Source: an uncultured Planctomycetales bacterium (GTDB taxonomy: Bacteria > Planctomycetota > Phycisphaerae > UBA1845 > PWPN01). Taken from it: a stretch of 64,000 nt of DNA. The notes beneath the pieces are model-generated. The model was not told where the DNA came from and ran no database searches. It saw only the letters and a program-made list of their open reading frames with translations. The stretch covers positions 1,160 to 65,159 of the forward strand of contig CAZEEJ010000004.1 of the NCBI GenBank assembly GCA_964511155.1, given 5' to 3'. The position numbers were made by a program, and so were the translations under genes. Shown one piece after another: positions 741-61,823 of this stretch. How positions within the stretch are numbered: position 1 is the stretch's first letter; every line of letters starts with the position of its first letter.

Positions 741-768
741 CGTATGTGTCCCGCCTCGCAAGCACCGC

Positions 769-812
769 TCTCTCACTTCTCACCTCTCACTTCTAACTTC
801 TCAACCTCTGTC
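769..812. repeat. Solo pyrimidine arm of repeat family A (CTCACTTCTCAC-type)
   Basis: tctctcacttctcacctctcacttctaacttctcaacc matches the right arms of the full family-A elements at 6879..7058 and 19636..19819. Confidence 0.6.
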
Positions 813-825
813 AACTGTGTGCCGT

Positions 826-928
826 ATTCATCGGCGTTCATCGGCGTCTATCGGCGGTTCGTCACCTCCTCGATCCCCAGAATGAGAGGATAACGAACCG
901 CCGATGCACGCCGATGAACGCCGATAAG
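826..928. repeat. Palindromic element: three TCATCGGCG-type 10-mers, a 32-nt spacer, then the inverted copy
   Basis: The left arm 826..861 (attcatcggcgttcatcggcgtctatcggcggttcg) is the approximate reverse complement of 894..928 (cgaaccgccgatgcacgccgatgaacgccgataag), with about 4 mismatches by hand. It lies between two minus-strand GH paralogues. Confidence 0.7.
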
Positions 929-996
929 AGAGGAACAGGAGGAGAAGGAAGATCTGACGGAGGAAGCCAAGATCGCTTCCTCCGTTTCCTCCCTGT

Positions 997-3282: not shown

Positions 3283-3589
3283 GGGTGGTGCAGAGTTGTC
3301 TGAGGTGGGCACGCAGTTGCTCCCGATTCCGGTCGCGGGCGGCCAGGGCTCGGCGGCGACGCTCCTCGGCTTCCGGACCTCGCGGCGCCATTGCGCGGAC
3401 CGTATCCAGCAGGTCACACAATGCTTCCATCCGTTCCGTGGGCGTACGGGCCTGGTTGAGCAGGATCTGCTCGCGAACGCTCCTCGCAAAAGCGTCGGCT
3501 TGAACGGCCATACGCCAATATGCTATCAGGTCCACGTCCGCCCGTCCAACCTGCCACGTCTCTTCCGCTTGCCGCTTGCGGCGGCGCAC
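3212..3589 (-). CDS. Hypothetical small protein; start uncertain (GTG at 3589 or ATG at 3511)
   Basis: 125-aa ORF with a non-degenerate composition (…LIAYWRMAVQADAFARSVREQILLNQARTPTERMEALCDLLDTVRAM…). I see no convincing RBS. The 3' end overlaps the start of the GH gene by 71 nt in another frame. It could be real or a chance ORF in the GH leader. Confidence 0.3.
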   Translation of the reverse strand: MRRRKRQAEETWQVGRADVDLIAYWRMAVQADAFARSVREQILLNQARTPTERMEALCDLLDTVRAMAPRGPEAEERRRRALAARDRNREQLRAHLRQLCTTHDSSLCGRCSSDMAQLEQSDDSG

Positions 3590-3686
3590 CTCGCGAACAC
3601 GATCGCCGATACCCCTTAAATACTTCTATCACGGACGATACCGGTTGACGCGCCGCCCCATCCACGTTAGCCTGCAACCGACAGTC

Positions 3687-3870
3687 GGGTGGCCCATCCT
3701 TGCGCAGCAAGGGTGGGCTCGCGATGATCGAAGGCGTGACGGGTGGCATGGGTCGGTACTCCGACCCGTGGTTGCCCCGCGAGAGGTCACGGGCCTGAGT
3801 ACAGGCCCATGCCACCCATCCGCATCATCGTGAGCCCACCCATCGCGTTGCGATGGATGGACCACCCGCC
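3687..3870. repeat. Repeat family F, full copy 1: nested-palindrome element, MITE-like or a structured RNA
   Basis: Left arm gggtggcccatccttgcgcagcaagggtgggctcgcgatgatcg (3687..3730). Inverted right arm catcatcgtgagcccacccatcgcgttgcgatggatggaccacccgcc (3823..3870). The interior holds a further inverted pair, gggtggcatggg / cccatgccaccc. The same architecture occurs at 21074..21210 and 61686..61823. Confidence 0.75.
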
Positions 3871-3914
3871 CGACCACCGCCGGCCAGCCCGGCTCAACAG
3901 AAAGGACCAACGCC

Positions 3915-5963: not shown

Positions 5964-5982
5964 CCATCAACAAAGCGGATCT

Positions 5983-6864: not shown

Positions 6865-6878
6865 CGGGCACCAAGTTT

Positions 6879-7058
6879 CCCCCAGTTGCACTCAGCAGCA
6901 TGGAGGAATAGAGAATGAGAAATGGAGAACTGAGAAAAGGCTGGCTTGGCAGGTGCCCTCCACCCCACCGTCGGTGACGTTGAGCAGCACCTGCCCAAAA
7001 CGCGGTTTCTCACCTCTCACTTCTCACTTCCCCAGCGTTGCGGAATGCAACGCTGGGG
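6879..7058. repeat. Repeat family A, full copy 1 (about 180 bp). The terminal hairpin 7030..7058 sits 33 nt downstream of the gap stop
   Basis: Left end cccccagttgca, then a purine arm ggaatagagaatgagaaatggagaactgagaaa, a spacer, a pyrimidine arm tttctcacctctcacttctcac, and a perfect hairpin ccccagcgttgc-ggaat-gcaacgctgggg. The layout matches 19636..19819. Confidence 0.75.
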
Positions 7059-7090: not shown

Positions 7091-8155
<1,065 letters not shown>

Positions 8156-8262
8156 TCACCCACAGCCGGGCGACCGGAAGGATTCAGCCGGGGCGCCGGG
8201 GGTTGAACAACCTGCAGGATAAGGCCTCGTGGCGGAGCGGTCAAGGCCGTCTTAACCCCCGA

Positions 8263-8421
8263 GTCGCCAACGGGTCCGTGACAGAATCGGCGGGGTGCCG
8301 ATTCCCTGAGGACCGAGTCAACTTGTTGATGGACGTGCCCACGCGTAGGTGACGAACAGCAACAAGTTGCCTTGGTCCTGGCAACGGCCCCCGCCGATTC
8401 TGTCACAGACCCGTCGCCAAC
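8263..8421. repeat. Repeat family G, copy 1: about 160-bp nested palindrome
   Basis: Outer arms gtcgccaacgggtccgtgacagaatcggcgggg (8263..8295) and ccccgccgattctgtcacagacccgtcgccaac (8389..8421). Inner inverted pair ggaccgagtcaacttgtt / aacaagttgccttggtcc. It lies between the SPFH gene stop and the gap start. A related copy is at 30064..30170. Confidence 0.75.
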
Positions 8422-9797: not shown

Positions 9798-9798
9798 T

Positions 9799-9838
9799 GC
9801 ACTAGCTCACTATATCACTAGTGTACTACATCATTAGA
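9799..9838 (-). promoter_or_regulatory. AT-rich putative promoter/operator directly upstream of the GntR gene
   Basis: gCACTAGCtCACTATAtCACTAGTgTACTACAtCATTAGa: five 8-nt-periodic CACTAG-like units including the palindrome CACTAGTG. This is the only AT-rich tract in the 484-bp divergent region. Confidence 0.35.
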
Positions 9839-9891
9839 CCGCCGTCAAGTCCTTTGGCGGAGTCTCGCCCGCACCGGGTCCCTGACAACAT

Positions 9892-9940
9892 GGGCGGGCG
9901 ACCCATCCATCGCAGCGCGATGGGTGGGCTCACGATGATG
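9892..9940. repeat. Repeat family F, solo arm
   Basis: gggcgggcgacccatccatcgcagcgcgatgggtgggctcacgatgatg is the reverse-complement type of the family-F right arm. Confidence 0.7.
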
Positions 9941-10281
9941 CGTGTGCGGGTAGATCTCCTGGCGAAGGCTGGGTGGCCCAAGTCCTTTGGACTTGAGGGA
10001 GCGATTGCCGGACGTGCTGCGCAACCGGTGCGTGTGCAGGGTCGGCGTGCCCTTGAATCGCTCCCCCAGGTTCAAAGAACGTGGGCCACCCCGTCGATTC
10101 GGCCGCGGCTCCCAGTGCGCGCCACGCCGTACCGCATGATTGTCCCTCATCCGAGACGGCGGTAGAATCAAACGGCAGAAGGCTCGTGCCGTCCTGCCTG
10201 AGGTTCGCCCGCCCTGAAAGCCGTCAGTCATGGGGCCATCCGCGGGCGCGACCAGCGTGCTTGTGGGAGCTTTGAGGCACC

Positions 10282-13834: not shown

Positions 13835-14094
13835 CAGTGAGCGAGGCAGCGAGACAGCGACACAGCAAGGCAGCGACACAGCGAGACAGCGAGGCAGCGA
13901 GACAGCGAGGCAATGCGTCCGTGTGCCACTGCTCTTTGAGCAGTGCTTCGGGTGCGTGGCTTGGACCACGAACAAGTTCGCTTGGTCCCGGACACGAACA
14001 AGTTCGCTCGGTCCTCGCACGAACAAGTTCGCTCGGTCCTGGTACCACGACCGTTTCGCGATCAAGACCCACGATCGGGCTTGCCGCTTCGCGG
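13835..14094. repeat. Composite repeat cluster: 8-mer array, family-B hairpin, three tandem hairpins and a family-H core
   Basis: 13835..13912 is a CAGCGAGA/CAGCGACA 8-mer array. 13923..13946 is gtgccactgctctttgagcagtgc. 13963..14039 holds three copies of ggacc(a)cgaacaagttcgc(t)yggtcc. 14077..14094 is gggcttgccgcttcgcgg. Confidence 0.75.
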
Positions 14095-17783: not shown

Positions 17784-17878
17784 CCCACGGGGTGCCACCC
17801 GTGGGCTTGGAGTTGCGAGCAGCCCACGGGTTGCAAAGCCCACGGGTTGCAAAGCCCACGGGTTGCAACCCGTGGGCT
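17784..17878. repeat. Hairpin plus 3 tandem 16-mers (AGCCCACGGGTTGCAA) ending in a perfect hairpin
   Basis: cccacggg-gtgcca-cccgtggg at 17784..17805. Units at 17821-36, 17837-52 and 17853-68. The last unit pairs with cccgtgggct, giving a 10-bp stem at 17853..17878, 21 nt before the tsaC start. Confidence 0.75.
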
Positions 17879-17898
17879 CGGCCCGCACATGCGAGGTG

Positions 17899-19514: not shown

Positions 19515-19635
19515 CTTTCAGGCAGGGTTCGGGAGCCGTGACCAGGATTCGGAAGCCGTGACGCGGCCGGTGCGAAGCCGCAAGCGGCCGCACTGCGTCA
19601 AGCGCAGTGGCCCACGCCCCCACCCCCGCTCAGTA

Positions 19636-19819
19636 CCCCCCAGTTGCATTCTGCGACCGGGGGGAATGGAGAATGAGGAATGGAGAATTGAGAAAAAGCC
19701 GCCTTCTATGCCTGCCGCCCCACCTCACCACCAGTGAGGTTCACCGGCTGTCCACGGGAGACACGGTTTCTCACTTCTCACTTCTCACTTTTTCCGCGTT
19801 GCGCAATGCAATGTTGGGG
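19636..19819. repeat. Repeat family A, full copy 2 (184 bp), between convergent rpiB and an oxidoreductase gene
   Basis: Left hairpin cccccc-agttgca-ttc-tgcgacc-gggggg (19636..19664). Purine arm gaatggagaatgaggaatggagaattgagaaa, a spacer, then the pyrimidine arm tttctcacttctcacttctcac. Right hairpin ccgcgttgcgcaatgcaatgttgggg ends 20 nt before the minus-strand stop at 19839. Confidence 0.75.
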
Positions 19820-20873: not shown

Positions 20874-20890
20874 AAACTTTCCTCCCGTAT

Positions 20891-20994
20891 GGCGGTGTGC
20901 CACCGCTCCTCGAGCCGTTCGCGGTGTGCCACCGCTCTTTGAGCAGTGCGCCGTGTGCAACCGCTCTTTGAGCAGTGCGAACGCGTGCAACGCC
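20891..20994. repeat. Three degenerate tandem copies of the family-B hairpin
   Basis: ggtgtgccaccgctcctcgagccgttcg / cggtgtgccaccgctctttgagcagtgcg / ccgtgtgcaaccgctctttgagcagtgcg. Confidence 0.7.
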
Positions 20995-21073
20995 CCCGTC
21001 TCTCGGACCCTTGGGCGGCCCGGGGAGCGCGGCCACCATGACGCAACCATTCCGCCGGACATCGTACACTGGT

Positions 21074-21210
21074 GGGTGGCCCATTCTTGCGCAGCAAGGG
21101 TGGGCTCGCGATGATCGAACGCGTAAGAAAGCCTGCGTGACCAAGCAGCCGTTCTGCATTCGTATCATCGCGAGCCCACCCATCGCGTTGCGATGGATGG
21201 GCCACCCGCC
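21074..21210. repeat. Repeat family F, full copy 2
   Basis: gggtggcccattcttgcgcagcaagggtgggctcgcgatgatcg … tatcatcgcgagcccacccatcgcgttgcgatggatgggccacccgcc, with a 46-nt unrelated interior. Confidence 0.75.
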
Positions 21211-21311
21211 CTCATACCTGTGGCGCCGGTTCGTAACCGGTGCTCCCCGGCCACATCGTACACCGGGCGGCAGTCTTGCGGAAGAGCCGACCTCGCGTAT
21301 CATGGTCGCCC

Positions 21312-24578: not shown

Positions 24579-24580
24579 CG

Positions 24581-24700
24581 AGTCGGGAATCGGGGGTCGG
24601 AGGTCGGGGCTCGGGGATCGGGGGTCGGGGCGACCGGCCGCTTGCGGCTTCGCACGGCCGCGTGCAGGTCCCCCGTGTGCCACTGCTCTTGGAGCAGTGC
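24581..24700 (+). repeat. Composite module D+C+B starting 3 nt after the GH2 stop
   Basis: Heptads agtcggg aatcggg ggtcgga ggtcggg gctcggg gatcggg ggtcggg, then ccgcttgcggcttcgcacggccgcgtgcaggtcccccgtgtgccactgctcttggagcagtgc. Confidence 0.8.
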
Positions 24701-24882
24701 CGAACGCGCGTCACGCCCCGTTGCCCCCGGAACCGGCGGCCTCGAAAACCGCTCCCCGGTGGGCTATAGTCTCTTTGTATCGCAGTCTCTTTGTACCGCG
24801 GCATGTACCCGATGCGACGCCGCTTTGCGGCTTCGCACGGGACTGGAAAACATCCGCCTTCGGATAGCAAGGGAGTCCACTC

Positions 24883-26718: not shown

Positions 26719-26765
26719 CCGCCGCAGATAACGAGCCCCAAGCGCAAGCGCGGGGTTTCGCGTGG

Positions 26766-26855
26766 AAGGTCGGGGATCGGGGGCAACCAGCCGCTTGCGG
26801 CTTCGCACGACAGCGTGCAGATCCCCCAGTGTGCCACTGCTCTTTTGAGCAGTGC
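26766..26855 (+). repeat. Composite module D+C+B (short heptad part) between ilvD and the thioredoxin-like gene
   Basis: aaggtcggggatcgggggcaaccagccgcttgcggcttcgcacgacagcgtgcagatcccccagtgtgccactgctcttttgagcagtgc. Confidence 0.8.
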
Positions 26856-26893
26856 GGCGAGCGAACAACGCCGCCAAGCCGAGGAATGACACG

Positions 26894-27394: not shown

Positions 27395-27397
27395 CCA

Positions 27398-27556
27398 CGG
27401 GTCGCGGATCGGGAATCGGGGATCGGGAGTCGGGGATCGGGAGTCGGGAGTCGGGGGTCGAAGATCGGGGATCGGGGATCGGGGATCGGGGATCAGGGGT
27501 CGGGGATCGGGGGTCGGAGATCGGGGTCGAAGATCGGGGATCGAGGATTGGGGATC
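27398..27556 (+). repeat. Family D: about 160-bp tandem heptad array (GGGGATC / GGGAGTC variants), G-rich on the + strand
   Basis: It starts 4 nt after the thioredoxin-like gene stop. It has more than 20 G-runs of at least 3 separated by 3-4 nt, and about a dozen GATC tetranucleotides by my count. Confidence 0.9.
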
Positions 27557-27563
27557 AAGCAAG

Positions 27564-27634
27564 CCCAGGGATAACCGGCCCGGCGGAGGTCGTCCCGATG
27601 ATGCGGGATTACTGGCGGGCCGGTTATCCCTGGG
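27564..27634. repeat. Family E copy 1: perfect 19-bp inverted repeat with a 33-nt spacer
   Basis: cccagggataaccggcccg (27564..27582) and cggccggttatccctggg with a leading c (27616..27634). The same arms occur at 52861..52932, with the spacer in the opposite orientation. Confidence 0.9.
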
Positions 27635-27675
27635 TTTCGGGATCAGGGATTATGGATCGGGGATCTGCGGACGAC

Positions 27676-27968
27676 CCGCCGCTTGCGGCTTCGCACGACA
27701 GCGTGCAGATTCCCCGTGTGCCACTGCTCTTTGAGCAGTGTCGAGCGCGCCCAACGCCACTGCGTATCCGTGCAGCACCCCGTGCGCCATTGCTCTGTGC
27801 AAGCTTGTTCGTGGACAGAACCGAGTCAACTTGTTCGTGGTCGAGACCGCCCCCCGAAGCACTGCTCAAAGAGCAGTGGCACACGGACCGCGAAGCGGCA
27901 AGCCGGCAGCAAAGCTCATCCCGCTATCCCGCCAACTCACTTGCTAACTCGCGAACTCGCTAACTCGC
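27676..27968. repeat. Repeat-only DNA: a C+B module, an inverted family-B hairpin, a family-H core and an 8-mer array
   Basis: 27676..27740 is ccgccgcttgcggcttcgcacgacagcgtgcagattccccgtgtgccactgctctttgagcagtg. 27860..27883 is cactgctcaaagagcagtggcac (inverted). 27888..27905 is cgcgaagcggcaagccgg. 27934..27968 is aactcacttgctaactcgcgaactcgctaactcgc. Confidence 0.8.
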
Positions 27969-28898
27969 TCACTCCTCCGACTTCGCCGCCGGGCAAAGCT
28001 CGCTCATCGTCTTATGGAAGAAGCTCACGCACTGGGCCACTTCCGGCATCGAGTTCTCCCAGTTGTGCTCGTACTCGACCATCACGCCGCCGCTGAATCC
28101 TTGCCGGTGCAGCTCAGCCAGCAGCGCTCGGGCATTCCCCACCCCCGTGCCCCAGGGCACGTCATGGCTGTCCTTCTTCTTCTCCTTCAGGTCCTTGAAG
28201 TGCGACCAGAGGATGCGCCCTTCCAGCTTCTTCAGGCACTCGAGCGGGTTCAGCCCCGAACGGACCCAGTGCCCGGTATCCGCACACGCCCCGATCCGCT
28301 TGCTCCGCCCCTCGATGGCCTTCAGTACCGTGTCCGGGTTCCAGTACCGCGACGGGGCCGGGTGATTGTGGATGGCCACGTTGATCCGGTACTCGTTGGC
28401 CAGCCGATCGATCATCTCCAGGGTTGCCGGATCCGGTTCCGAAGTAATCGTGGTCACCCCCAGCACCTTGGCGAAGTCAAAGACCTTGCGGGCTGATGCT
28501 TCGTCCTCCCCAAAACCCACGACACCGAACCCCAGAATCCGTACCTGGGCCTCATCGAGTTTGTTCTTGAGCTGGGCGATCAACGCGACCGGCAGGTCAG
28601 GGTTGAACTTCACACCTTCGTGGTCCTTGCTGAACGCCTGCCCCGGGAACGCCTCCATCGTGCGCAACCCCAGCGCCTGGGCCTTCTCGATCGCCTCGAA
28701 CAGCGTGAACAACCGGAATGTATAGGCTTGCGTCCCGACCATCATGCATGGCCCCTCCGGGCAGGCAGCGGGAGCCGCCGCCGCCACCGTACGTGCACAG
28801 CACGGCGCCGCCGCCTGCGCCGCACCGGCAACCATCAGACTCACCAACGCCCCCGCACCCATCATCGTCACCCATGTCCGCATGGTCATCGCCCTCAT
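27969..28898 (-). CDS. Secreted sugar-phosphate isomerase/epimerase-like protein (xylose-isomerase-like TIM barrel)
   Basis: Start placed at the ATG at 28898 (MRAMTMRTWVTMMGAGALVSLMVAGAAQA signal). The core contains INVAIHNHP…, CADTGHW… and VMVEYEH metal-ligand-like motifs. Confidence 0.8.
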   Translation of the reverse strand: MRAMTMRTWVTMMGAGALVSLMVAGAAQAAAPCCARTVAAAAPAACPEGPCMMVGTQAYTFRLFTLFEAIEKAQALGLRTMEAFPGQAFSKDHEGVKFNPDLPVALIAQLKNKLDEAQVRILGFGVVGFGEDEASARKVFDFAKVLGVTTITSEPDPATLEMIDRLANEYRINVAIHNHPAPSRYWNPDTVLKAIEGRSKRIGACADTGHWVRSGLNPLECLKKLEGRILWSHFKDLKEKKKDSHDVPWGTGVGNARALLAELHRQGFSGGVMVEYEHNWENSMPEVAQCVSFFHKTMSELCPAAKSEE

Positions 28899-29138
28899 CT
28901 GCACCCCACGCTCCTGCGCCCGGCACACGCGTGCCCCGGCAACCTCGCACTGCTTGGCGCCCGCCTCAGCGGCACCGTGGGGATTGTAACACGCCCCACC
29001 ACCCGCCGAAAGCCACGAATCGCGATCAACGCGAAGCCATGGTTCACGATCAAAACGCAGTCACCCGTCGCGGGCAAAACCCACGACCCGGCTTGCCTCT
29101 TCGCGGGCAAACCACATCACAAGGCCGCACCGCGGCCC

Positions 29139-30032: not shown

Positions 30033-30063
30033 ATTGCACCTCCTGCCGGCGGCGTCCCTACCA

Positions 30064-30170
30064 AGTCCAAGGCAACTTGTTGCCGCTCATCAGATACGCT
30101 TGGGCACGTCCATCGACAGGTTGGCTCGGTCCTTGGTGAATCGACACCCCGCCGATTCTGTCGCAGACCC
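30064..30170. repeat. Repeat family G, copy 2 (inverted relative to copy 1; left outer arm missing)
   Basis: gtccaaggcaacttgttgcc…gggcacgtccatcgacaggttggctcggtcc…ccccgccgattctgtcgcagaccc aligns with the reverse complement of 8296..8410. It lies in the divergent hydrolase/cdsA intergenic region. Confidence 0.7.
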
Positions 30171-36843: not shown

Positions 36844-37098
36844 ATGAAGGCCTCATTTGTCGACTTGCGGAAGAAATCGAGTGAGATCATCCGTGCATTG
36901 GACCGCAATGAACGGGTAACCGTTCTCTATCGCGGCCGCCCCAAGGCGGTCATGCATCCCGTTGGAGCGGAAGACGGCTCCGCGGTTTCCCGCGTCACAG
37001 GCCATCCTGCTTTCGGTCTGTGGGCAGGCCGACAGGATATAACAGACGTGGCTGACCATGTCCGCAAGCTACGACAAGGGCGGTTCCTTGATCTTTGA
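36844..37098 (+). CDS. Type II antitoxin, Phd/YefM-like
   Basis: ORF trimmed to the ATG at 36844 (MKASFVDLRKKSSEIIRALDRNERVTVLYRGRPKAVMHPV). It overlaps the PIN gene. Confidence 0.7.
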   Translation: MKASFVDLRKKSSEIIRALDRNERVTVLYRGRPKAVMHPVGAEDGSAVSRVTGHPAFGLWAGRQDITDVADHVRKLRQGRFLDL

Positions 37099-37465
37099 TA
37101 CTGACGTGTTGATCTGGGTGCTGCGCGGCAATGCGAAAGCCGCCCGGGCCGTGGGGAAGGCCGATGCCCGGGCCATCTCCGTGGTGTCATATATGGAGCT
37201 GCTTCAAGGGGCGCGCGACAAGCGTGAGGTGAAGGTGATCAGGGGCTTCTTGGTCGACCTGGGCTTCCAGACACTCCCATTGACGGAGAACATCGGGCAT
37301 CGGGCGTCCGTCTACGTGGAGGAGTACGGTCTTGCGGTCGCGATGAGCGTGGCCGATGCGTTGATTGCCGCCACGGCCGTCGATTATCGTAGCGCACTGT
37401 TCACCGGGAACCGCAGACACTACAAGCATATCAAGGAGCTTGAACTGAAGCTCTTTCGGCCGTAG
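37058..37465 (+). CDS. vapC: PIN-domain toxin (VapC-like)
   Basis: Acidic residues in PIN spacing: FDTDV, YMELLQG, VADALIAATA, TGNRRHY. The start could instead be the in-frame TTG at 37088. Confidence 0.8.
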   Translation: MSASYDKGGSLIFDTDVLIWVLRGNAKAARAVGKADARAISVVSYMELLQGARDKREVKVIRGFLVDLGFQTLPLTENIGHRASVYVEEYGLAVAMSVADALIAATAVDYRSALFTGNRRHYKHIKELELKLFRP

Positions 37466-37558: not shown

Positions 37559-38626
<1,068 letters not shown>

Positions 38627-38875: not shown

Positions 38876-39070
38876 ATGAAGGGTATCAAGAAGGGTCAGG
38901 TGATCCTCCTGGAGCACGAGCCTGAGGTGCCGGATGGTACCGAGGTGGAGATTGTCCTGCCCACCGAGTGGGAAGCGCAGCGAAACAGCCTGCTCTCCGT
39001 GGGCTACCACCCGGACTTCGGCCGCGAAGTCGAGGAGGCCCAAAGGGCATGGAACCCACCCAAGTTCTGA
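38876..39070 (+). CDS. Putative antitoxin (small beta-rich protein, DUF104/AF2212-like by recollection)
   Basis: 64 aa from the ATG at 38876 (RBS gggaga): MKGIKKGQVILLEHEPEVPDGTEVEIVLP… It overlaps the PIN gene by 22 nt. Confidence 0.55.
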   Translation: MKGIKKGQVILLEHEPEVPDGTEVEIVLPTEWEAQRNSLLSVGYHPDFGREVEEAQRAWNPPKF

Positions 39071-39447
39071 TCGACACGAACCTCTTTATCGAGCATATCC
39101 GGGCCAAGCAGAAAGAAACCACCTCGCTGGCCCGCATCCAGGAACAACGCCACCGGTTGGTCACATCCAGTATCGTCGTGGCCGAGCTCTGCTATGGGGC
39201 TCGATCAGACCTGCTGCGTGCCGAGGTTGAGAAGGTTCTTTACGGTGTCGAGATTCTACCCTTCACGGTCCAGATCGCCTGGCAGATTGCCGCCGAAGCG
39301 GAGCGACAGAAGAGCGCGGGGGGGGTCATCGGCTTTCGTGACCTGGCCATCGCCTGCACGGCACTCATCGAACACCTCCCGGTTGCGACACATAACCGGG
39401 CAGAGTTTACTCGCGTGCAGAACCTTCGGCTGTTTGACTGGCGGTGA
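39049..39447 (+). CDS. vapC: PIN-domain toxin (VapC-like), second copy
   Basis: MEPTQVLIDTNLFIEHI…VVAELCYG…FRDLAIACTAL…THNRAEF. Confidence 0.8.
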   Translation: MEPTQVLIDTNLFIEHIRAKQKETTSLARIQEQRHRLVTSSIVVAELCYGARSDLLRAEVEKVLYGVEILPFTVQIAWQIAAEAERQKSAGGVIGFRDLAIACTALIEHLPVATHNRAEFTRVQNLRLFDWR

Positions 39448-41266: not shown

Positions 41267-41278
41267 CGGATCGCAGGC

Positions 41279-41340
41279 GCGATCATCAAGGACAAGCGTC
41301 GCAACCTGCCCTGTGCAGCTTGCTGTGAGCAGGAGTACGG
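41279..41340 (+). pseudogene. Displaced fragment of an mdh 3' coding region
   Basis: By hand alignment, 62 nt match mdh 38405..38466 with 6 mismatches ([21 protein letters not shown] vs [21 protein letters not shown]). The frame stays open to 41468, with only faint similarity beyond the match. Confidence 0.65.
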
Positions 41341-41474: not shown

Positions 41475-42230
41475 ATGGCTGACGCGAGCATGATGAGTCG
41501 TGTGCGGGTGGTGCTGGTGCGGCCGCAGATTGCGGGGAACGTCGGGGCGGTGGCGCGGGTCATGGAGAACTTCGACGCGGGAGCGCTGTACGTGGTGGCG
41601 CCCGAGGTCGACGTGCTCTCGCGCGACGCGCTGCAGCGGAGCACGCGGGGGGAGCATCGGCTGCACGAGGCCTGCGTCGTCGCGACGCTCGCCGAAGCCC
41701 TGGAAGGGGCCGTTTACGCGGTGGGCACCAGCCGGCGGACCGGGCCGGTGCACCAGGCGGACGACCGCTTCCCGCGCGACCTGGGCGGGTTGCTGCGGCC
41801 GCACCTGGACGCCGGCTACGCGGCCCTGCTGTTCGGCTCCGAGGACAACGGCCTGTCGCGCGAGGAGTTGCTCCGCTGTGATGCCGTGGTGCAGATTCCC
41901 GCTCAGCCGGCGTATCCGACGTTGAACCTCTCCCATGCCGTGGCCGTCTGCCTCTATGAGTGTTTCCTCGCCCTGGCCGACGTCCGTCATACCGACGCCA
42001 ACCTCCACCCCGTCGGCCAACCCGCCGACCTGGCCCTCATGTCCCGCCTGCTGGATCGGCTTCAGCAGGCCCTGGGCACCATCGGCTATCTGAACCCCGA
42101 CAAGCCGGACCACCTGATGTTCCCCATCCGCGGCATCCTCTCGCGGGCCGGCCTGACCCGCACGGAAGCTCAGATCCTCATGGGCTTGGCTCAGCAGATC
42201 GAGGAGTTTGCGGGGAGAGTGAGCGAGTGA
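41475..42230 (+). CDS. trmJ: SpoU/TrmH-family tRNA 2'-O-methyltransferase (TrmJ-like)
   Basis: VVLVRPQIAGNVGAVARVMENF…LLFGSEDNGLS…IPAQPAYPTLNLSHAVAV plus a TrmJ-type C-terminal extension. Confidence 0.8.
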   Translation: MADASMMSRVRVVLVRPQIAGNVGAVARVMENFDAGALYVVAPEVDVLSRDALQRSTRGEHRLHEACVVATLAEALEGAVYAVGTSRRTGPVHQADDRFPRDLGGLLRPHLDAGYAALLFGSEDNGLSREELLRCDAVVQIPAQPAYPTLNLSHAVAVCLYECFLALADVRHTDANLHPVGQPADLALMSRLLDRLQQALGTIGYLNPDKPDHLMFPIRGILSRAGLTRTEAQILMGLAQQIEEFAGRVSE

Positions 42231-42326
42231 GCAAGTTAGCGAGTTAGCGAGTTAGCAAGTGAGCGAGTTAGCACGGCGGCGAGGGAGCACAGGCCCTGGT
42301 CTCGGCTTGCCGCTTCGCGGTCCGCA
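42217..42326. repeat. Family H module (8-mer GCGAGTKA array plus a 49-nt core), left copy
   Basis: The array 42217..42272 starts inside the last trmJ codons. The core 42272..42320 is cacggcggcgagggagcacaggccctggtctcggcttgccgcttcgcgg. Confidence 0.8.
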
Positions 42327-45015: not shown

Positions 45016-45185
45016 CCGCGAAGCGGCAAGCCGGGACCGGAGCCTGTGCTCCCTCGCCGCCGTGCTCCCTCGCTCACTTGCTCACTCGCTCACTCGCTAA
45101 CTCGCTCACTTGCTAACTCGCTCACTTGCTAACTCGCTCACTCGCTGACTCGCTCACTTGCTCCCTTGCTCACTCGCTGACTCGT
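45016..45185. repeat. Family H module, right copy, inverted relative to 42217..42326
   Basis: By hand alignment, the core 45016..45064 is the reverse complement of 42272..42320 with 3 mismatches in 49. It is followed by a CTCACTYGCT 8-mer array running to about 45185. Confidence 0.8.
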
Positions 45186-45292
45186 TGCCTTGCCGCCCTG
45201 CTGCCTCCTCTTGACTTGCCGCCGACGCGTTCCTACGTTGACGGTTTACCGCGGACCGGAGATTCCCGCGGGACAGGCGAGGTGGCGTACCC

Positions 45293-46168
45293 GTGCAGGA
45301 AGCAATCAACAAAGCGTCGGTGCTCATCGAGGCCCTGCCCTACATCCAGGGCTACGACCGCAAAATCGTGGTGGTCAAGCTCGGCGGGTCGGTGATGGAC
45401 GATCCGGTAGCGGAGCGGGACTTGCTCCGCGACGTGGTCTTCATGAACAGCGTGGGGATGCAGCCGATCATCGTTCACGGCGGCGGGAAGGAAATCTCCA
45501 AGGCCATGGACGAGGCGGGCCTGGAGCCCGTTTTCGTGCAGGGGCTGCGGTACACCGACGAACGCACCCTGGCCATCGCCGAGCAGGCCCTGTGTGCCCG
45601 GATCAACCATCGCATCGTGGACACGTTGACGTCGATGGGCGTCGCGGCGCTCGGCCTGCACAGCCTGACGAGCTGCGTGCTCTTCGCCGAGCGGCTCTTC
45701 CTCAGCGGCGAGCACGGCCGGCGGATCGACATCGGGTACGTCGGGCAAGTCCAGGAGGTCAACGCCAAGATCCTGCGGCTGCTCTGCCAGGCGGACACCA
45801 TCCCGGTCATCGCCCCCATCGCCCGGGACCACAGCGGGGGCAAGCTCAACGTCAACGCCGACACCGCCGCCGGCCACGTCGCCGCCGCCATCCAGGCCGA
45901 GAAGCTGGTCATGGTTTCCGATACTCACGGCATCCGCACCGAGAAGGATAACCCCGACTCCTTCTGCACGTCGCTCAATCGGCAGGAAATCGCCGACCTC
46001 ATGCAGCGCGGCATCATCGACCGGGGCATGATCCCCAAGGTGGAGGCCTGTCTGCGGGCCCTCGACGCCGGCACGCGCAAGGCTCACATCATCGACGGCC
46101 GCATCCCTCATTCGCTGCTCCTGGAGATCTTCACCGACAAGGGCGTCGGCACGCAGATCCAGCCGTGA
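45293..46168 (+). CDS. argB: Acetylglutamate kinase
   Basis: GTG start. LPYIQGYDRKIVVVKLGGS…, GGGKEI, NVNADTAAG. Confidence 0.93.
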   Translation: MQEAINKASVLIEALPYIQGYDRKIVVVKLGGSVMDDPVAERDLLRDVVFMNSVGMQPIIVHGGGKEISKAMDEAGLEPVFVQGLRYTDERTLAIAEQALCARINHRIVDTLTSMGVAALGLHSLTSCVLFAERLFLSGEHGRRIDIGYVGQVQEVNAKILRLLCQADTIPVIAPIARDHSGGKLNVNADTAAGHVAAAIQAEKLVMVSDTHGIRTEKDNPDSFCTSLNRQEIADLMQRGIIDRGMIPKVEACLRALDAGTRKAHIIDGRIPHSLLLEIFTDKGVGTQIQP

Positions 46169-46221
46169 AATGACAGAAGCGGGGGGAGCGGCCGCCCCCT
46201 GTGGCGGCCGAGGCCAGTATG

Positions 46222-46269
46222 CCCCCCAGTTGCATTCGGCGACCGGGGAAGTGGAGAACGAGGAATGGG
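46222..46269 (+). repeat. Repeat family A, left half only (hairpin plus purine arm), 54 nt after the argB stop
   Basis: ccccccagttgcattcggcgaccgggg aagtggagaacgaggaatggg. Confidence 0.65.
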
Positions 46270-46321
46270 CCGGAACGCGCAATGGCCGCGGCCGCCGGTC
46301 CGCCTCGCGGGAGGAGTATGC

Positions 46322-47764
46322 ATGATGCCCCGTTTACTTTCCTTTGCAGCCACCCTGGTTGTCGTGGTCGTTTCGATCCAGCCCGCGCAGGCGACGAAGC
46401 CCGCCAAGCCGAACATCGTGTTCATCTTCGCCGACGATCAGTGCTTCGACACCATCCGGGCATGGGGCAATCGCGAGATCCAGACGCCAAGCCTGGACCG
46501 GCTGGTTGAGTCGGGCGTCAGCTTTACCCACACCTACAATATGGGCGCATGGTCGCCGGCCGTCTGCATGCCGAGTCGGGCCATGATCAATACCGGCCGG
46601 TTCCTGTGGCGCACCGAGCCGCGAGACGGGCAGCGCGAAGACCTGCGCTTCTTCCAGGAAGGCAAGCTCTGGTCGCAGCTCCTCGCGCAGGGCGGTTACG
46701 ACACGTACTTCACCGGCAAGTGGCACATCGCGCCCGACCCGTCCAAGGCATTCCGGTTCACGCGACACGTCCGTCCGGGCATGCCCAAGGACGCGCCGCA
46801 AGGCTACAACCGCCCGCTGGAGAATGAGCCGGATCCGTGGACGCCGTGGGACCCCGAGTTCGGCGGGTTCTGGGAGGGAGGCAAGCACTGGAGCGAGGTG
46901 CTGCGCGAGGATGCGTGTGCCTTCCTCGATCAGGCCGCCGGGCGCGACCAGCCGTTTTTCATGTACCTGGCCTTCAACGCCCCCCACGACCCGCGACAAT
47001 CGCCACGGGAGTATGTCGAGCGCTATCCGGTGGACCACATCAGCCTGCCGGTGAACTTCCTGCCGGCCTACCCGTTCGCGGCAGACATCGGCTGCGGCCC
47101 GGACCTTCGTGACGAGCGACTGGCCCCGTTCCCGCGCACGCCCCGGGCCGTGCGGGTCCATCGGCGCGAGTATTACGCGATTATCACGCACCTGGACACG
47201 CAGATCGGCCTGATTCTCGACCACCTCGAGCGGCTCGGCCTGCGCGAGCGCACCTATGTGCTCTTCACCGCCGATCACGGGCTGGCGGTGGGCCAGCATG
47301 GGCTGATCGGCAAGCAGAACCTCTTCGAGCACAGCATGCGCGCCCCGCTGATGATCGCCGGTCCCGGCATCCCCGCCGGGCGGCGCATCGACACGCCCGT
47401 GTACCTGCAGGATGTGATGCCCACCTCGCTCGAACTGGCCGGCGTCAGCCCACCCGAGCACGTCGAGTTCAAGAGCCTGCTGCCGCTGGTGGACGGCCGG
47501 CACGAGCGCTCGTACGAGGCCATCTACGGCGCGTACCTGGATCTGCAGCGCGCGGTCATCCAGGATCACCACAAGCTCATCCTGTATCCCGGGATCGGCA
47601 AGACGCTGCTGTTCGACCTGGCCAACGATCCGCACGAGATGAACAACCTGGCCGATGATCCCGCCCAGAGAATGACCATCCAACGTCTCTTCGCGACCCT
47701 GCGAGAGCTGCAGCCGGAAACGGGTGACCGTCTCGACCTGAAGACCGCGTACCCGGACCTGTGA
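46322..47764 (+). CDS. Secreted formylglycine-dependent sulfatase
   Basis: Start at the ATG at 46322 (RBS gggaggag). Signal peptide. PNIVFIFADDQ and the CMPSR (C-x-P-x-R) motif. Confidence 0.9.
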   Translation: MMPRLLSFAATLVVVVVSIQPAQATKPAKPNIVFIFADDQCFDTIRAWGNREIQTPSLDRLVESGVSFTHTYNMGAWSPAVCMPSRAMINTGRFLWRTEPRDGQREDLRFFQEGKLWSQLLAQGGYDTYFTGKWHIAPDPSKAFRFTRHVRPGMPKDAPQGYNRPLENEPDPWTPWDPEFGGFWEGGKHWSEVLREDACAFLDQAAGRDQPFFMYLAFNAPHDPRQSPREYVERYPVDHISLPVNFLPAYPFAADIGCGPDLRDERLAPFPRTPRAVRVHRREYYAIITHLDTQIGLILDHLERLGLRERTYVLFTADHGLAVGQHGLIGKQNLFEHSMRAPLMIAGPGIPAGRRIDTPVYLQDVMPTSLELAGVSPPEHVEFKSLLPLVDGRHERSYEAIYGAYLDLQRAVIQDHHKLILYPGIGKTLLFDLANDPHEMNNLADDPAQRMTIQRLFATLRELQPETGDRLDLKTAYPDL

Positions 47765-47806: not shown

Positions 47807-47940
47807 CACTGCTCAAAGAGCAGTGGCACACCGTAGCGGCCGCCCCCTGCGGCGGCCGGGCACCGGCGAGACGCCGGTGCCACACCGCCCGCTGCCACAC
47901 CGCCCGCTGCCACACCGCACTGCTCAAGGAGCAGTGGCAC
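47807..47940. repeat. Two family-B hairpins (inverted orientation) flanking a perfect 10-bp hairpin and GCCACACCGCCCGCT 15-mer repeats
   Basis: cactgctcaaagagcagtg (47807..47825). ggcaccggcg-aga-cgccggtgcc (47859..47881). Tandem gccacaccgcccgct. gcactgctcaaggagcagtggcac (47917..47940). Confidence 0.75.
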
Positions 47941-52785: not shown

Positions 52786-52860
52786 AACCAGCGGTCCACC
52801 AGGCCCCTCGAAGACCCTTAAACCCAGAGCATACAAAGGATTACATCCGCGGAAAGCGAA

Positions 52861-52932
52861 CCCAGGGATAACCGGCCCGCCAGCACTGCCCGCATGATCC
52901 GGACGACCCCTGCCGGGCCGGTTATCCCTGGG
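52861..52932. repeat. Family E copy 2 (19-bp perfect arms, 34-nt spacer)
   Basis: cccagggataaccggcccg (52861..52879) and cgggccggttatccctggg (52914..52932). The spacer is approximately the reverse complement of the copy-1 spacer. Confidence 0.9.
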
Positions 52933-52940
52933 CTTGCCCG

Positions 52941-53048
52941 ACTCCTGATCCCCGACCCCCGATTCCCGGAAACCCGGGGGACTTGCGTCCCCGGCTCGTG
53001 CGTCCCGATGCCCGATCGCCGATCCGCGACTCCCAATCCCCGATTCCA
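52941..53048 (-). repeat. Family D heptad array, C-rich on the + strand (G-rich strand is minus), degenerate
   Basis: actcctgatccccgacccccgattcccgg…cccgatgcccgatcgccgatccgcgactcccaatccccgattcc. It is adjacent to family E, as in the 27.4-kb copy, but the whole unit is inverted. Confidence 0.75.
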
Positions 53049-59257: not shown

Positions 59258-59755
59258 ATGCCCGAAAGACAAGAAGAGGATATCGACGCCCTGCTGGCCG
59301 AGGTCAACGCCCTCGCCGACGAAGCCGTGGCCGAGATCGTCGGGCAGGAGCCCGCCGGCGACACCTTTGACGCCGACGTCCCCTTCTCCCCCGTGACCGA
59401 GCCACTCTCCCCCGTGACCGAGCCTCTTGCGGCCCACAGCGCACCAACGCCCCCCGCTGACCCGGCCCCGGCCTCAGCCCTGACCACAAAGGTCGAGGAC
59501 CTCGACCGCATCCTCCGGCTTCAGGTCCCGGTCATCGTGCAGCTCGCCTGCCGCACCATGCCCCTCTCGGAGATCATCACCCTCAGCACCGGCGCCATCA
59601 TCGAGTTCGAGAAGCTCGCCGACAGTGACCTCGACCTGGTCATCAACAACAAGTGCATCGGCCAGGGCCAGGCCGTCAAGGTCAGCGAGAACTTCGGCCT
59701 GCGGGTCACCCACATCGGTTCCCTGCGGGCCCGCATCCGCGCCCTGGGCAAGTGA
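59258..59755 (+). CDS. FliN/SpoA-domain protein (flagellar switch / type III sorting-platform family) with an acidic, proline-rich N-terminus
   Basis: Start at the ATG at 59258. The C-terminal about 80 aa (ILRLQVPVIVQLACRTMPLSEIITLSTGAIIEFEKLADSDLDLVINNKCIGQGQAVKVSENFGLRVTHI) match the FliN C-terminal consensus as I remember it. The N-terminal part contains the tandem SPVTEPL SPVTEPL. Confidence 0.75.
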   Translation: MPERQEEDIDALLAEVNALADEAVAEIVGQEPAGDTFDADVPFSPVTEPLSPVTEPLAAHSAPTPPADPAPASALTTKVEDLDRILRLQVPVIVQLACRTMPLSEIITLSTGAIIEFEKLADSDLDLVINNKCIGQGQAVKVSENFGLRVTHIGSLRARIRALGK

Positions 59756-59813
59756 CCCCCGTACCCCCGTCGTGCTTGCGGATCGCCAGCTTCCCCTGTC
59801 GCCTGCCCAGATC

Positions 59814-61451
59814 CTACCCGGCTACCAGATCCGCCGGCGCGCTCGCAAACGGCAAATCGCTGACGGTCACCTCCGGGTTGCGCTCCTGGAAGTACCGCAG
59901 CTTCCAGTTGTCCTGGAACAGCAACACCCGCTGCCCCCGGCCGTCGGTTGCCAGGCGAACCCCGTGCGGCAGGACCATACTTTCAACCCTGGTCGCGGGA
60001 TCGAGCCAGCGAGCCAGCGTCCAGGACGTCCCCTCGATTCGCGAGGCCGCCCCATACTCGGACTCCAGCCGGTACTGCACGATCTCGAACTGAAGCGGGC
60101 CGACCGCTCCCAGCAGCGGGACCTTCCGCGTCGCATCCGCCAGCTCGTACGTCTGCACCACCCCTTCCTGAAGGAGCTGGCTCAGGCCGTCGCGGAACCG
60201 CTTGAAGTTGGCCGGCTCGGGATTCTCCAGATACGCAAAGCACTCCGGGGCAAAACGCGGAATCTCGTCATAGACGATCGAGGCATCTTCCGTCAGCGTA
60301 TCGCCGATCGCGAACTTGGCGTTGCCGACGATGCCCACCACGTCGCCGGGGTAGGCCTCATCCACGGTTTCCCGCTCCTGGCCGAAGAGTTTGGCGGCGT
60401 TCGACAGTCGAATCGTTTTGCCGGTCCGTGCATGCCGAACGGTCATGTCCCGCTCGAATTTGCCCGAGACCACGCGAACGAAAGCGATGCGGTCGCGGTG
60501 GCGCGGGTCCATGTTCGCCTGGATCTTGAAGACAAAACCGGAGAAGAGCGGGTGTGTCGGCTGGATCAGGTCGGCCCCGCTGCGCCGACCGACCGGCGGC
60601 AGCGAGTGCTTCAAAAAGCCGTCCAGCAGCAGTTGCACGCCGAAGTTGTTCAAGGCGCTGCCGAAGTAGACCGGCGTGGTCCGCCCGGCCGCGACCTCGT
60701 CAGGCTGGAACTCGGCCCCCGCCCCCTCAAGCATCTCCACCTCGTCACAGACGGCACGATGGATGGTCTCGTCCAGACGGTCGCGGACCAGCGCGTCGGA
60801 CAGGCCCACCGTCGAGACCGGTGCGCGGTGCGCCCCGCCGGGCGTGCGTTCGTAGAGGTGGGCCATCCGCGTCCGACGATCCCATACCCCCTTGAAGTTG
60901 GTCCCCGTACCGAGCGGCCAGTTCATCGGGTACGCGGAAATGCCCAGGACGCTCTCCAGCTCATCCAGCAGGGCCAGCGGATCCCGAGCCGGGCGATCGA
61001 GCTTGTTCATGAAGGTGAAGATCGGCACGCCTCTGTGCCGGCAGACCTCGAAGAGCTTGCGGGTCTGACTCTCGATGCCCTTGCCGGCATCGATGACCAT
61101 GACCGCCGCGTCCACCGCGGTCAGCACCCGGTACGTATCCTCGGAGAAATCCTTGTGCCCCGGCGTGTCCAGCAGGTTGATGCGGAAGCCACGGTAGTCG
61201 AACTGCAGAACCGTGGAGCTGATCGAGATGCCGCGCTTCTTTTCCAGCTCCATCCAGTCGGAGGTGGTGGCCCGCTGAGTCTTCCGCGCCGTCACCGAAC
61301 CGGCCAGGTTCACCGCTCCGCCGTAGAGCAGGAACTTCTCGGTGAGCGTGGTCTTGCCGGCGTCGGGGTGCGAGACAATGGCGAACGTCCGCCGCCGGGC
61401 AATCTCCTGAAGCGACATGCGCTGTACGCTGGTTGTGGTCATGTCCATCAT
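59814..61451 (-). CDS. prfC: Peptide chain release factor 3
   Basis: RRTFAIVSHPDAGKTTLTEK, DTPGHKDF, NKLD. Start at the ATG at 61451 or one of three in-frame ATGs just downstream. Confidence 0.93.
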   Translation of the reverse strand: MMDMTTTSVQRMSLQEIARRRTFAIVSHPDAGKTTLTEKFLLYGGAVNLAGSVTARKTQRATTSDWMELEKKRGISISSTVLQFDYRGFRINLLDTPGHKDFSEDTYRVLTAVDAAVMVIDAGKGIESQTRKLFEVCRHRGVPIFTFMNKLDRPARDPLALLDELESVLGISAYPMNWPLGTGTNFKGVWDRRTRMAHLYERTPGGAHRAPVSTVGLSDALVRDRLDETIHRAVCDEVEMLEGAGAEFQPDEVAAGRTTPVYFGSALNNFGVQLLLDGFLKHSLPPVGRRSGADLIQPTHPLFSGFVFKIQANMDPRHRDRIAFVRVVSGKFERDMTVRHARTGKTIRLSNAAKLFGQERETVDEAYPGDVVGIVGNAKFAIGDTLTEDASIVYDEIPRFAPECFAYLENPEPANFKRFRDGLSQLLQEGVVQTYELADATRKVPLLGAVGPLQFEIVQYRLESEYGAASRIEGTSWTLARWLDPATRVESMVLPHGVRLATDGRGQRVLLFQDNWKLRYFQERNPEVTVSDLPFASAPADLVAG

Positions 61452-61685
61452 CCAGAGGCCAATTCGTCGTATCCGATCTCCGGCCCTTGCCTGCAGAGTG
61501 GCAACCGACCGACGGTCACCGCGAGCTGGAGCACAAACCAAAGGTTCAAACGAGGGTAATCAGCAGGGAATCAGGGTGGAGTCGTACCCCGCAACGACGG
61601 TAGTGCGAACAAGCTGGACATTCGAATCGCCTGCGTGCTCATCATGGCGGCATTGTACCCGCCCGCCCGCCCAATGAAAAGGGGC

Positions 61686-61823
61686 GGGTGGCCCATCCTT
61701 GAGCAACCGGTTCCGTGACACTTCCTTGCGCAGCAAAGGTGGGTCCACGATGATCCGACACGCGGGAAGGGTTCCTTCACCAAGAGACCCTTCCGCAGCC
61801 GCATCATCGTGAACCCACCCGCC
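61686..61823. repeat. Repeat family F, copy 3 (left arm interrupted, right arm truncated)
   Basis: gggtggcccatccttgagcaaccggttccgtgacacttccttgcgcagcaaaggtgggtccacgatgatccg … gcatcatcgtgaacccacccgcc. Confidence 0.65.

Follow-up and report, generated by a model that had tools for sequence, protein, structure and literature searches.

The stretch analysed here, called the window throughout, comprises 64 kb of DNA (contig CAZEEJ010000004.1, positions 1,160 to 65,159) with a G+C content of 66%, and it belongs to the core chromosome of an uncultured Phycisphaerae bacterium. Third-position GC content and matches to Pfam and NCBIfam models identified about 50 genes of ordinary chromosomal kinds in it. 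They include gap, ilvD, mdh, ybeY, lepA, prfC, lgt, the cluster plsX-fabH-fabD-fabG-acpP-fabF, and genes for an amino-acid kinase and a SpoU/TrmJ-like methylase. The closest named relatives of the glyceraldehyde-3-phosphate dehydrogenase (GAPDH) come from bins labelled "Phycisphaerae bacterium". A scan for tRNA genes found none in the window, and the covariance models of Rfam 15 gave no matches to it at gathering thresholds and only three, at chance level, at E ≤ 1. The subject of this work is the DNA between these genes, into which small non-coding repeats have probably spread; they belong to several families, all of known kinds. Two of them carry the argument: family B, which has the features of a repetitive extragenic palindrome (REP) and is linked in relatives to a REP-associated tyrosine transposase (RAYT), and the G/I element, which is built like a miniature inverted-repeat transposable element (MITE) and is flanked by 9-bp direct repeats.

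The window was compared with itself by BLAST, and all coverage figures are therefore lower bounds. Of 2865 repeated nucleotides, 2730 were non-coding and 135 coding, which corresponds to 27% of the approximately 9.6-10.1 kb of non-coding DNA versus 0.25% of the approximately 54 kb of coding DNA, an enrichment of about a hundred-fold. When interspersed repeats, tandem arrays and long inverted repeats were taken together, they covered at least 3419 of 9561 non-coding nucleotides (36%), and 41% within gaps of at least 150 nt. A first-pass annotation of the same letters had described the intergenic DNA as almost entirely a mosaic of at least eight short repeat families, with nearly every gap longer than about 150 bp built from them. 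The first statement is too strong in view of the 36% covered. As for the second, 20 of the 25 gaps of at least 150 nt do carry a module and five carry none, with a per-gap coverage ranging from 0 to 0.91; the tightly packed gaps of the fab operon have no repeats.

The eight family cores themselves were all recovered where they had been reported or close by, far above the expectation from 60 first-order Markov simulations of the window, and several further families recur as well. The cores of A, B, C and the H tail occur 3, 8, 6 and 5 times against simulated means of 0.05, 0, 0.05 and 0.02, those of E, F and G occur 4, 3 and 3 times against 0 for each, and the D and H8 arrays gave 11 and 12 overlapping matches against 0. 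In a separate shuffle control the expected number of B copies was also 0. The families are real and modular, but they are not eight independent ones. The A, E and F motifs are the two arms of inverted-repeat elements of 70-190 nt, G forms the terminal repeats of an element that has the I motif (CACGAACAAGTTCGCTCGGTCC), a family that the earlier list lacked, as its interior, and C+B as well as H8+H tail are fixed composites.

For comparison, loci and contigs were fetched from other genomes and metagenomes (L-numbers below): B-bearing loci (235 kb) and I-bearing loci (52 metagenome loci, 278 kb), with about 600 kb of DNA from relatives overall. The motifs are not confined to the window, since B, a sibling hairpin called B3, J, I, the H tail and C were found beyond this genome. 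At strict thresholds, A, C, D, E, F, G and H8 were absent from the B-bearing and I-bearing loci; with looser BLAST settings, C and B3 were present in a close relative. A, D, E and F were not found in the 600 kb of relatives and look lineage-specific.

Family B is a unit of 23 nt, a GTGC tag followed by an 8-bp stem (CACTGCTC/GAGCAGTG) with a 3-nt loop. Folded as DNA, the copy at 27714-27745 gives -7.7 kcal/mol (z = -3.5). Nine copies and two variants were counted in the 64 kb, all of them extragenic:

13923-13945, plus strand: B REP, exact match to a 23-mer that at least 22 other genomes share
20897-20977, plus strand: three B REPs in tandem, spaced 29 nt apart, within a divergent promoter gap; the first copy is degenerate
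24677-24699, plus strand: B REP, 3' member of the first D+C+B unit
26831-26854, plus strand: B REP with a loop of 4 nt, forming the 3' member of the second D+C+B unit; not caught by the mismatch search
27718-27740, plus strand: B REP, 3' member of the third D+C+B unit; inverted pair with 27860-27882
27860-27882, minus strand: B REP, inverted partner of 27718-27740; an H8 array and H tail precede it on its own strand
47807-47829, minus strand: B REP
47918-47940, minus strand: B REP, loop CTT
47861-47883, minus strand: B-like variant of the same architecture, GTGG + CACCGGCG-TCT-CGCCGGTG, z = -3.9; also in L003 and L098
19588-19612, minus strand: B-like hairpin CCACTGCGC-TTGA-CGCAGTG, adjoining a C module in reverse order

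The copy with the 4-nt loop, which is the ninth, and the two variants had been overlooked before. The arms of the inverted pair are complementary at 100% over 27 nt, with 119 nt between them. This is the one inverted pair in the window (27718 / 27882), the other neighbours being direct (20897-20977; 47807 with 47918), and a strict alternation of REP orientation like that of the bacterial interspersed mosaic elements (BIMEs) was not observed. The complement of B ends in TGGCAC, and B was considered as a sigma-54 promoter; this was rejected, since conservation does not extend to the -12 region downstream. Another hairpin family, GGCCGCCCCCTGYGGCGGCC, has copies at 46187-46210 and 47835-47858 and forms a tandem array with a period of about 50 nt in a close relative (L098, 6470-6684).

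With one genome scanned per species, the identical B 23-mer, GTGCCACYGCTCTTKGAGCAGTG, was found at no fewer than 32 loci and in at least 22 species-level assemblies; among the matches listed, nearly all genomes are labelled Phycisphaerae or Planctomycetota. What is conserved at these loci is the hairpin and the bases just before it, while the flanks are unrelated. The GTGC tag stands on exactly one side of 75 of the 80 exact hairpins and on both sides of none, and the proportion was 24 of 26 in loci that had been chosen without the tag. Over all loci, 78 of 84 tagged hairpins are extragenic. Near-identical sequence surrounds the hairpin in L007, labelled Rokuibacteriota, and in L020, labelled Planctomycetota; the former label is probably a binning or labelling error.

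The link to a transposase was found in the relatives. In L019 two inverted B hairpins bracket an open reading frame (ORF) of 185 amino acids, one 16 nt before its ATG and the other 5 nt after its stop codon. The product matches the NCBIfam equivalog NF047646, "REP-associated tyrosine transposase", with 94 bits (cut-off 80), and the Pfam family Y1_Tnp with 28.8 bits (cut-off 23). Its sole relative in the PDB is 4ER8, the E. coli TnpArep, with which the HUH and Tyr motifs are aligned. A search returned 2602 relatives at E ≤ 1e-10, the best 120 of which are 60-87% identical to the query. The same layout is present in L038 (the cultured Phycisphaerae bacterium RAS1), L039, L040 and L042, so that inverted B flanks were seen at all five RAYT loci inspected, with the tagged hairpin upstream on the gene strand and downstream on the opposite strand. 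This arrangement of inverted REPs around a RAYT gene, the REPtron, is known from other bacteria (PMC3733652, PMC6006769). Judged by these sequence features, family B is a true REP with its own RAYT. Binding and cleavage of single-stranded B by this enzyme are predicted from homology, namely the NF047646 match and the motif alignment with 4ER8, and its catalysis on B would follow the same expectation. Phycisphaerae bacterium RAS1 has at least three distinct RAYT paralogues (P0072, P0093, P0104), which shows that the transposase is not always single-copy.

The second element that can be assigned to a known kind combines G and I:

8272-8412, unstranded: G/I MITE of 141 nt with G terminal inverted repeats and an internal inverted I pair; -58 kcal/mol, z = -11.7
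30065-30170, plus strand: partial G/I element (I pair and right-hand G end only) in a divergent gap
13967-14042, plus strand: three I units in tandem (period 25 nt), lying downstream of a B REP
27800-27852, minus strand: two degenerate I units, after the 27860-27882 REP on this strand

The 8272-8412 copy has homologues in L052, L054 and L090 (76-82% identity). The metagenome loci collected with the I core have 53-66% GC, and in many of them an inverted I pair is enclosed by a 162-nt element, each end of which bears an outward-facing G-type motif. Full elements thus measure 141-162 nt, with terminal inverted repeats of about 25 nt (GGGNCYGTGACAG-type ends). The window has two copies, one of them partial, and the metagenome loci have about 20 distinct ones. 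Outward-facing G motifs at both ends characterise the full copies at 8272-8412 and in L044, L058 and L077, and three of these four are flanked by perfect 9-bp direct repeats: GTCGCCAAC in the window (8263-8271 and 8413-8421), CAAAGGAGG in L044 and CCGGACACC in L058. We estimate the chance of a perfect 9-bp flanking repeat at about 1e-5 per site. By its structure the G/I element is a MITE, and the 9-bp duplications read as the signature of its transposition. The I core was also considered as a LexA-type box and rejected on spacing and copy number.

Three longer inverted-repeat families and two single-copy structures occupy further gaps:

6874-7058, plus strand: A element of about 185 nt with ends CCCCAGTTGCATTC / GAATGCAACGCTGGGG, sub-terminal heptads of the GAGAATG type and a variable centre
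19632-19819, plus strand: second full A element, its ends 80-85% identical to those of the first
46222-46268, plus strand: solo left end of A
3687-3871, unstranded: F element of 185 nt with ends GGGTGGCCCATCC..GGGTGGGCTCGCGATGATCG and a nested hairpin (3738-3820), in a divergent gap
21074-21211, unstranded: 138-nt F element beside the B triplet, in a divergent gap
61680-61820, unstranded: diverged F element
9892-10091, minus strand: solo F end (9892-9968) and an unrelated 121-nt hairpin (9971-10091), z = -6.1
27561-27637, unstranded: E element, 77-nt hairpin with arms CCCAGGGATAACCGGCCCG, z = -8.0
52856-52937, unstranded: second E element, inverted relative to the first as judged by the loop, z = -6.2
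815-935, unstranded: single-copy long hairpin of 10-nt repeats (TTCATCGGCG three times and their complement), z = -10.0
17785-17885, unstranded: 16-nt repeat AGCCCACGGGTTGCAA three times with inverted copies, forming two strong hairpins, z = -6.1

Family A is thus represented by two full copies of about 185 nt, which combine inverted ends with sub-terminal heptads, plus a solo end and an arm-like fragment, and F by three copies of 138-185 nt with inverted ends of about 45 nt and a solo end fused to another hairpin. The two copies of E are near-perfect hairpins of 77-82 nt in opposite orientation, each with D heptads beside it. The recurrence of D+E as a unit in two orientations had been noticed before, and the inverted loop can be read directly from the sequence. 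An AGTAC repeat at the second A copy was considered as a target duplication and rejected, as it is part of the inverted end.

The remaining modules are tandem arrays of variable copy number with 7-nt (D) or 8-nt (H) units, and short connectors (C and the H tail):

24582-24631, plus strand: D heptads (GGGGATC-like), 7 copies, starting 4 nt past the stop of the gene that ends at 24578
27402-27556, plus strand: D heptads, about 22 copies, starting 8 nt past the stop at 27394; they continue at 27639-27665 beyond the nested E
52937-53047, minus strand: D heptads in reverse beside the second E (52937-52968 and 53012-53047)
24628-24717, plus strand: C+B composite of about 90 nt (connector CCGCTTGCGGCTTCGCAC, hairpin, REP and a tail ..AACGCC); also at 26780-26860 and 27669-27758
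13840-13909, plus strand: octads AGCGAGAC, 8.8 copies, 14 nt 5' of a B REP
42217-42324, plus strand: H8 octads (GCGAGTKA), spacer and H tail (CGGCTTGCCGCTTCGCGG), filling a convergent gap
45016-45190, minus strand: in reverse orientation, H tail, spacer and an H8 array of 15 copies, within which Logan contigs from two runs break off
27888-27975, minus strand: H8 array and H tail immediately 5' of the 27860-27882 REP
14077-14094, plus strand: H-tail connector; a one-mismatch copy lies at 29089-29106

The three C+B copies are 85-90% identical and are each preceded by D heptads, which bears out the reported recurrence of D+C+B after three plus-strand genes (24579-24717, 26770-26857 and 27397-27758). 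H8, spacer and H tail likewise form a unit that is found on both strands. In otherwise homologous units D is present in about 2, 7 and 22 copies and H8 in 4.5, 7 and 15, and these copy-number differences point to replication slippage as the source of the variation in array length. The (GGGGATC)n array at 27402-27556 conforms to the canonical G-quadruplex pattern, its G4 runs being separated by 3-nt loops, and has a GATC in every unit; in three of four D arrays the G-rich strand coincides with the sense strand of the gene upstream. Other, lineage-specific arrays of 7-8 nt, such as (AGGGAGTG)n, (AGGCACGA)n and (GGTGTTG)n, are frequent between the genes of many Phycisphaerae bins (L008, L009, L010, L013, L025, L028 and others), with up to five in an 8-kb locus. 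Another motif, J (CCCCAAGCGCAAGCGCGGGG), lies at 26736-26755 and recurs in L003, L012, L018, L058 and L082; in L018 two copies immediately precede a B hairpin, an arrangement like that in the window. The folding of J is not significantly better than that of shuffled sequence.

Many modules lie 0-40 nt from a stop codon or overlap it, as had been proposed. In the case of the SpoU/TrmJ-like gene, for which the first-pass annotation had placed a repeat within the last codons, the H8 array overlaps the gene end and supplies the stop codon (42228-42230), and it also supplies that of the AP-endonuclease-like gene ending at 27969 (27969-27971). Since the H8 units (GCGAGTGA) contain TGA, the repeat has replaced the original ends of both genes. 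Over all loci, B lies 14 times in convergent and 5 times in divergent gaps, which agrees with the suggestion of preferential insertion, or survival, at gene ends. Comparison with L035, which has the same gene order and a thioredoxin-like protein 71% identical to that of the window, documents gain or loss of modules. The gap between the trx (thioredoxin-like) gene and the AP-endonuclease-like gene measures 574 nt in the window and holds D, E, C, B, I and H, whereas the gap in L035 measures 139 nt and contains a plain hairpin and no D, E, C or B. In the next gap, a block of about 110 nt with the H-tail copy at 29089-29106 is present in the window only.

The same positions raise the possibility that the modules are RNA elements selected by the host, acting as terminators independent of a U-tract or as protectors of mRNA 3' ends. 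The hairpins are strong, D+C+B is sense-oriented after the three plus-strand genes, B is commoner in convergent than in divergent gaps, and canonical terminator-like sites are not enriched in the window (14 versus 10.6 +/- 3.3 expected), so that something else may do their job. REPs in general show the same positional bias, and roles at the RNA level have been proposed for them (PMC3733652). We nevertheless consider this explanation unlikely. Modules occupy four of the six divergent gaps (3490-3914, 9798-10281, 20874-21311 and 30033-30256), where no transcript ends, B has no preferred orientation, being sense in 17 and antisense in 12 of its occurrences in co-directional gaps over all loci, and no T-run follows the B hairpins. 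Besides, the orthologous gaps of the relative do without the modules and have a simple hairpin instead, several of the families look lineage-specific, and the 9-bp duplications and the RAYT linkage speak for insertion and not for evolution in situ. The dedicated terminator or 3'-UTR role that had been put forward is thus not borne out, although effects of the modules on RNA ends could arise as a by-product.

The order of the modules around B suggests another alternative. A purine-rich array, a connector (CTTCGC), the GTGC REP and an I array follow one another in a recurring order, and the combination of array, H tail, B and I is found on both strands of the window and in relatives. Wherever a purine-rich array lies near B it is on the tag side, with the purine strand being the tag strand (8 of 8 cases in five species: four in the window and one each in L005, L018, L023 and L025). 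The segment 13888-14015, comprising octads, B and I, aligns at 74% to four contigs of relatives (L061, L064, L071 and L088), while in L093 and L067 octads, H tail and I come in this order right after a stop codon. The four modules could therefore be one composite that is mobilised or maintained whole by RAYT, or that the host has domesticated as a signal punctuating the chromosome; the strong conservation of both REP and RAYT across the class would fit either version. It is doubtful, because many B copies in other species are solitary, without arrays, the unit sequences of the arrays differ by lineage, the order is reversed at 19570-19612 and the four cases in the window are not independent of each other. 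To our knowledge, there is no biochemical precedent for the formation of arrays by a Y1 transposase. There is, in our view, only a small chance that the Phycisphaerae REP is the core of a conserved composite built and maintained by RAYT and perhaps used by the host to punctuate transcript ends or chromosome structure. If it were, the arrays would have arisen on the tag side as RAYT repeatedly cleaved and rejoined the DNA, and would not be products of polymerase slippage.

A regulatory reading, in which I, with its palindromic core CGAACAAGTTCG, and G, with its -35/-10-like sequences, are the operator and promoter sites of a regulon and the repeats are arrays for binding of a transcription factor, is very improbable. 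The 12-bp palindromic core is conserved in contigs covering the whole GC range given above, two of the three G motifs in the window, as we read them, point at a gene start 90-160 nt away, and -10-like hexamers (TAAACT, TATACT and GATTCT) can be recognised in the G motifs. G and I, however, are parts of a single element that has terminal inverted repeats and is bordered by 9-bp target duplications, I arrays are also located right after stop codons and REPs, and G faces outward at both ends regardless of the neighbouring genes. A scan of the window with promoter consensus sequences showed no enrichment.

That the repeats are an assembly or binning artefact of this contig, whose source is probably a metagenome-assembled genome, can hardly be maintained, given that two independent Logan assemblies from different sequencing runs match 45113-47141 at 100% (both stopping inside repeats), that dozens of other genomes and metagenomes carry these families, and that the repeats respect gene boundaries. 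Apart from these two contigs, megablast of the window against all fetched loci detected no second copy of the region.

We therefore return, as the probable explanation, to the colonisation of the gaps by several kinds of mobile or slippage-prone repeats and infer that these accumulated neutrally. The REPs would serve as the single-stranded DNA substrate of RAYT, an HUH tyrosine transposase that would have been inherited together with B across the Phycisphaerae. The G ends with their I interior would be moved in trans by a transposase that makes 9-bp target duplications, and A, E, F and the few single-copy hairpins would be long inverted-repeat elements moved by an undefined mobiliser. The D heptads, the H/O octads and the 25-nt I units would lengthen and shorten through replication slippage, with C and the H tail travelling with the REP inside composite units. 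Insertions would survive only where they do little harm, mostly just downstream of genes, and new copies landing in or beside old ones would give nested blocks that resemble a combinatorial mosaic.

Several observations weigh against this scenario. Pfam and NCBIfam searches found no gene for RAYT or any other transposase in the 64-kb window and, because the window is the part of its own genome that was read, the link between REP and RAYT rests on relatives. No autonomous partner was found for any of the MITE-like families. As to an element with G-type ends, none was identified, the search for paired ends 0.7-3 kb apart being swamped by chance matches in GC-rich DNA. Inspection by eye revealed no convincing target duplications around A, E and F. 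The regular order and strand of the modules around B exceed what random nested insertion would give and hint that the composite is a unit, possibly a functional one. The near-identity of one REP across a whole class seems to us unusual for selfish DNA. Lastly, a G/I element is also present in the gap of L035 that corresponds to 30065-30170 and, with the thioredoxin-like proteins of the two genomes differing as stated, this could reflect selection instead of neutral persistence.

Each component resembles a described system. As in the REP/REPIN-RAYT systems of E. coli, Pseudomonas and Stenotrophomonas (SMAG) and the GTAG families treated in PMC3733652, B is a palindrome with an unpaired tetranucleotide on one side, occurs in many copies that stand singly, in tandem or as inverted pairs, and flanks a single RAYT gene, in relatives, with inverted copies. 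Its bias towards convergent and co-directional gaps is also the general pattern of REPs in that work, and it co-exists with the sibling hairpin type B3. It differs in the tag, since GTGC is neither GTAG nor GTRG nor any other of the variants listed there (GYAG, GYRG, GTRG, GTMG and GTGG), in the presence of an identical hairpin in so many species-level genomes across a class, and in being regularly joined to purine-rich arrays of 7- or 8-nt units and connectors. The co-existence of several families of REPs and terminal inverted repeats (TIRs) in one genome has been described before in PMC3733652, which also reports REP families from R. baltica, a planctomycete, and O. terrae, a verrucomicrobium. 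The earlier remark that the density and modularity go well beyond ordinary REP-type elements is only partly right: B itself is an ordinary REP with its own RAYT, and mosaics of several families are already known.

Such multi-family intergenic mosaics include the BIMEs of E. coli, the Neisseria intergenic mosaic elements (NIMEs) and the pneumococcal BOX elements, which may be regarded as the closest analogues of the arrangement found here. They share with it a small vocabulary of motifs in recurring orders, a richness in hairpins and a location mostly downstream of genes, and internal units vary in number as boxB does in BOX. The motif sequences are different, and here a REP is combined with at least one MITE with target duplications and with microsatellite-like arrays of heptads and octads; the strict alternation of BIMEs is missing, as noted above. 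Compared with MITEs such as Correia, ERIC, RPE and Nezha, the G/I element is likewise small, non-coding and multi-copy, with terminal inverted repeats, a long hairpin and 9-bp duplications. Its interior consists of a repeated 22-nt palindromic motif that is also found as free tandem arrays, and no parent insertion sequence was identified for it. A, E and F are similar to MITEs in size and inverted-repeat design, but show no convincing target duplication. The tandem heptamer arrays of cyanobacteria known as STRR are intergenic, vary in copy number and have no known function. The D arrays are likewise intergenic tandems of 7-nt units (CCCCGAT/GGGGATC) in variable copy number, an analogy that implies no homology. 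The phylum and the unit sequences are different, the arrays of the window have a fixed orientation to the REP hairpin, and 8-nt units are as common in them as 7-nt units.

The window thus shows a known phenomenon in a dense form not described before; no new kind of element is involved. In the literature searched these repeat sequences were not found; they, the GTGC tag and the rule of array-to-REP orientation appear to be undescribed. For the Phycisphaerae, a poorly studied class known mostly from metagenome bins, a REP/RAYT pair and a MITE are now defined, along with a set of array motifs. The repeats break short-read assemblies, contigs of which stop within them, and knowledge of them is of use for assembly, binning and annotation, including that of stop codons derived from repeats. 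A class-wide REP with a conserved transposase offers a test case for the domestication of RAYT with a host function, and the fixed orientation of the arrays relative to the REP tag is a concrete oddity that can be tested.

Some other features of the window were recorded. The 98 nt upstream of gap (8111-8208) are about 89% conserved in L098 (9903-10000), a relative that has no neighbouring genes in common, and presumably represent the gap promoter and leader. The G/I MITE adjoins the outer edge of this block. No synteny around gap was found in the relative with a 97%-identical GAPDH. A piece of 62-72 nt of the mdh coding sequence (38395-38466) is repeated 2.9 kb downstream as non-coding DNA (41269-41340; 86-90% identity). 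The DNA between the two copies has a lower GC content and the opposite GC skew and contains a PIN-domain gene and three ORFs without an assigned Pfam match; the block looks like a small island inserted into the 3' part of mdh, with a target duplication. Two PIN-domain (VapC-like) genes lie on either side of mdh (37058-37465 and 38968-39447), and the small ORF that precedes each of them is a candidate antitoxin. Perfect tandem duplications of 21 nt were also seen across the end of a phoH-like gene (32240-32281) and within a coding region (59385-59424).

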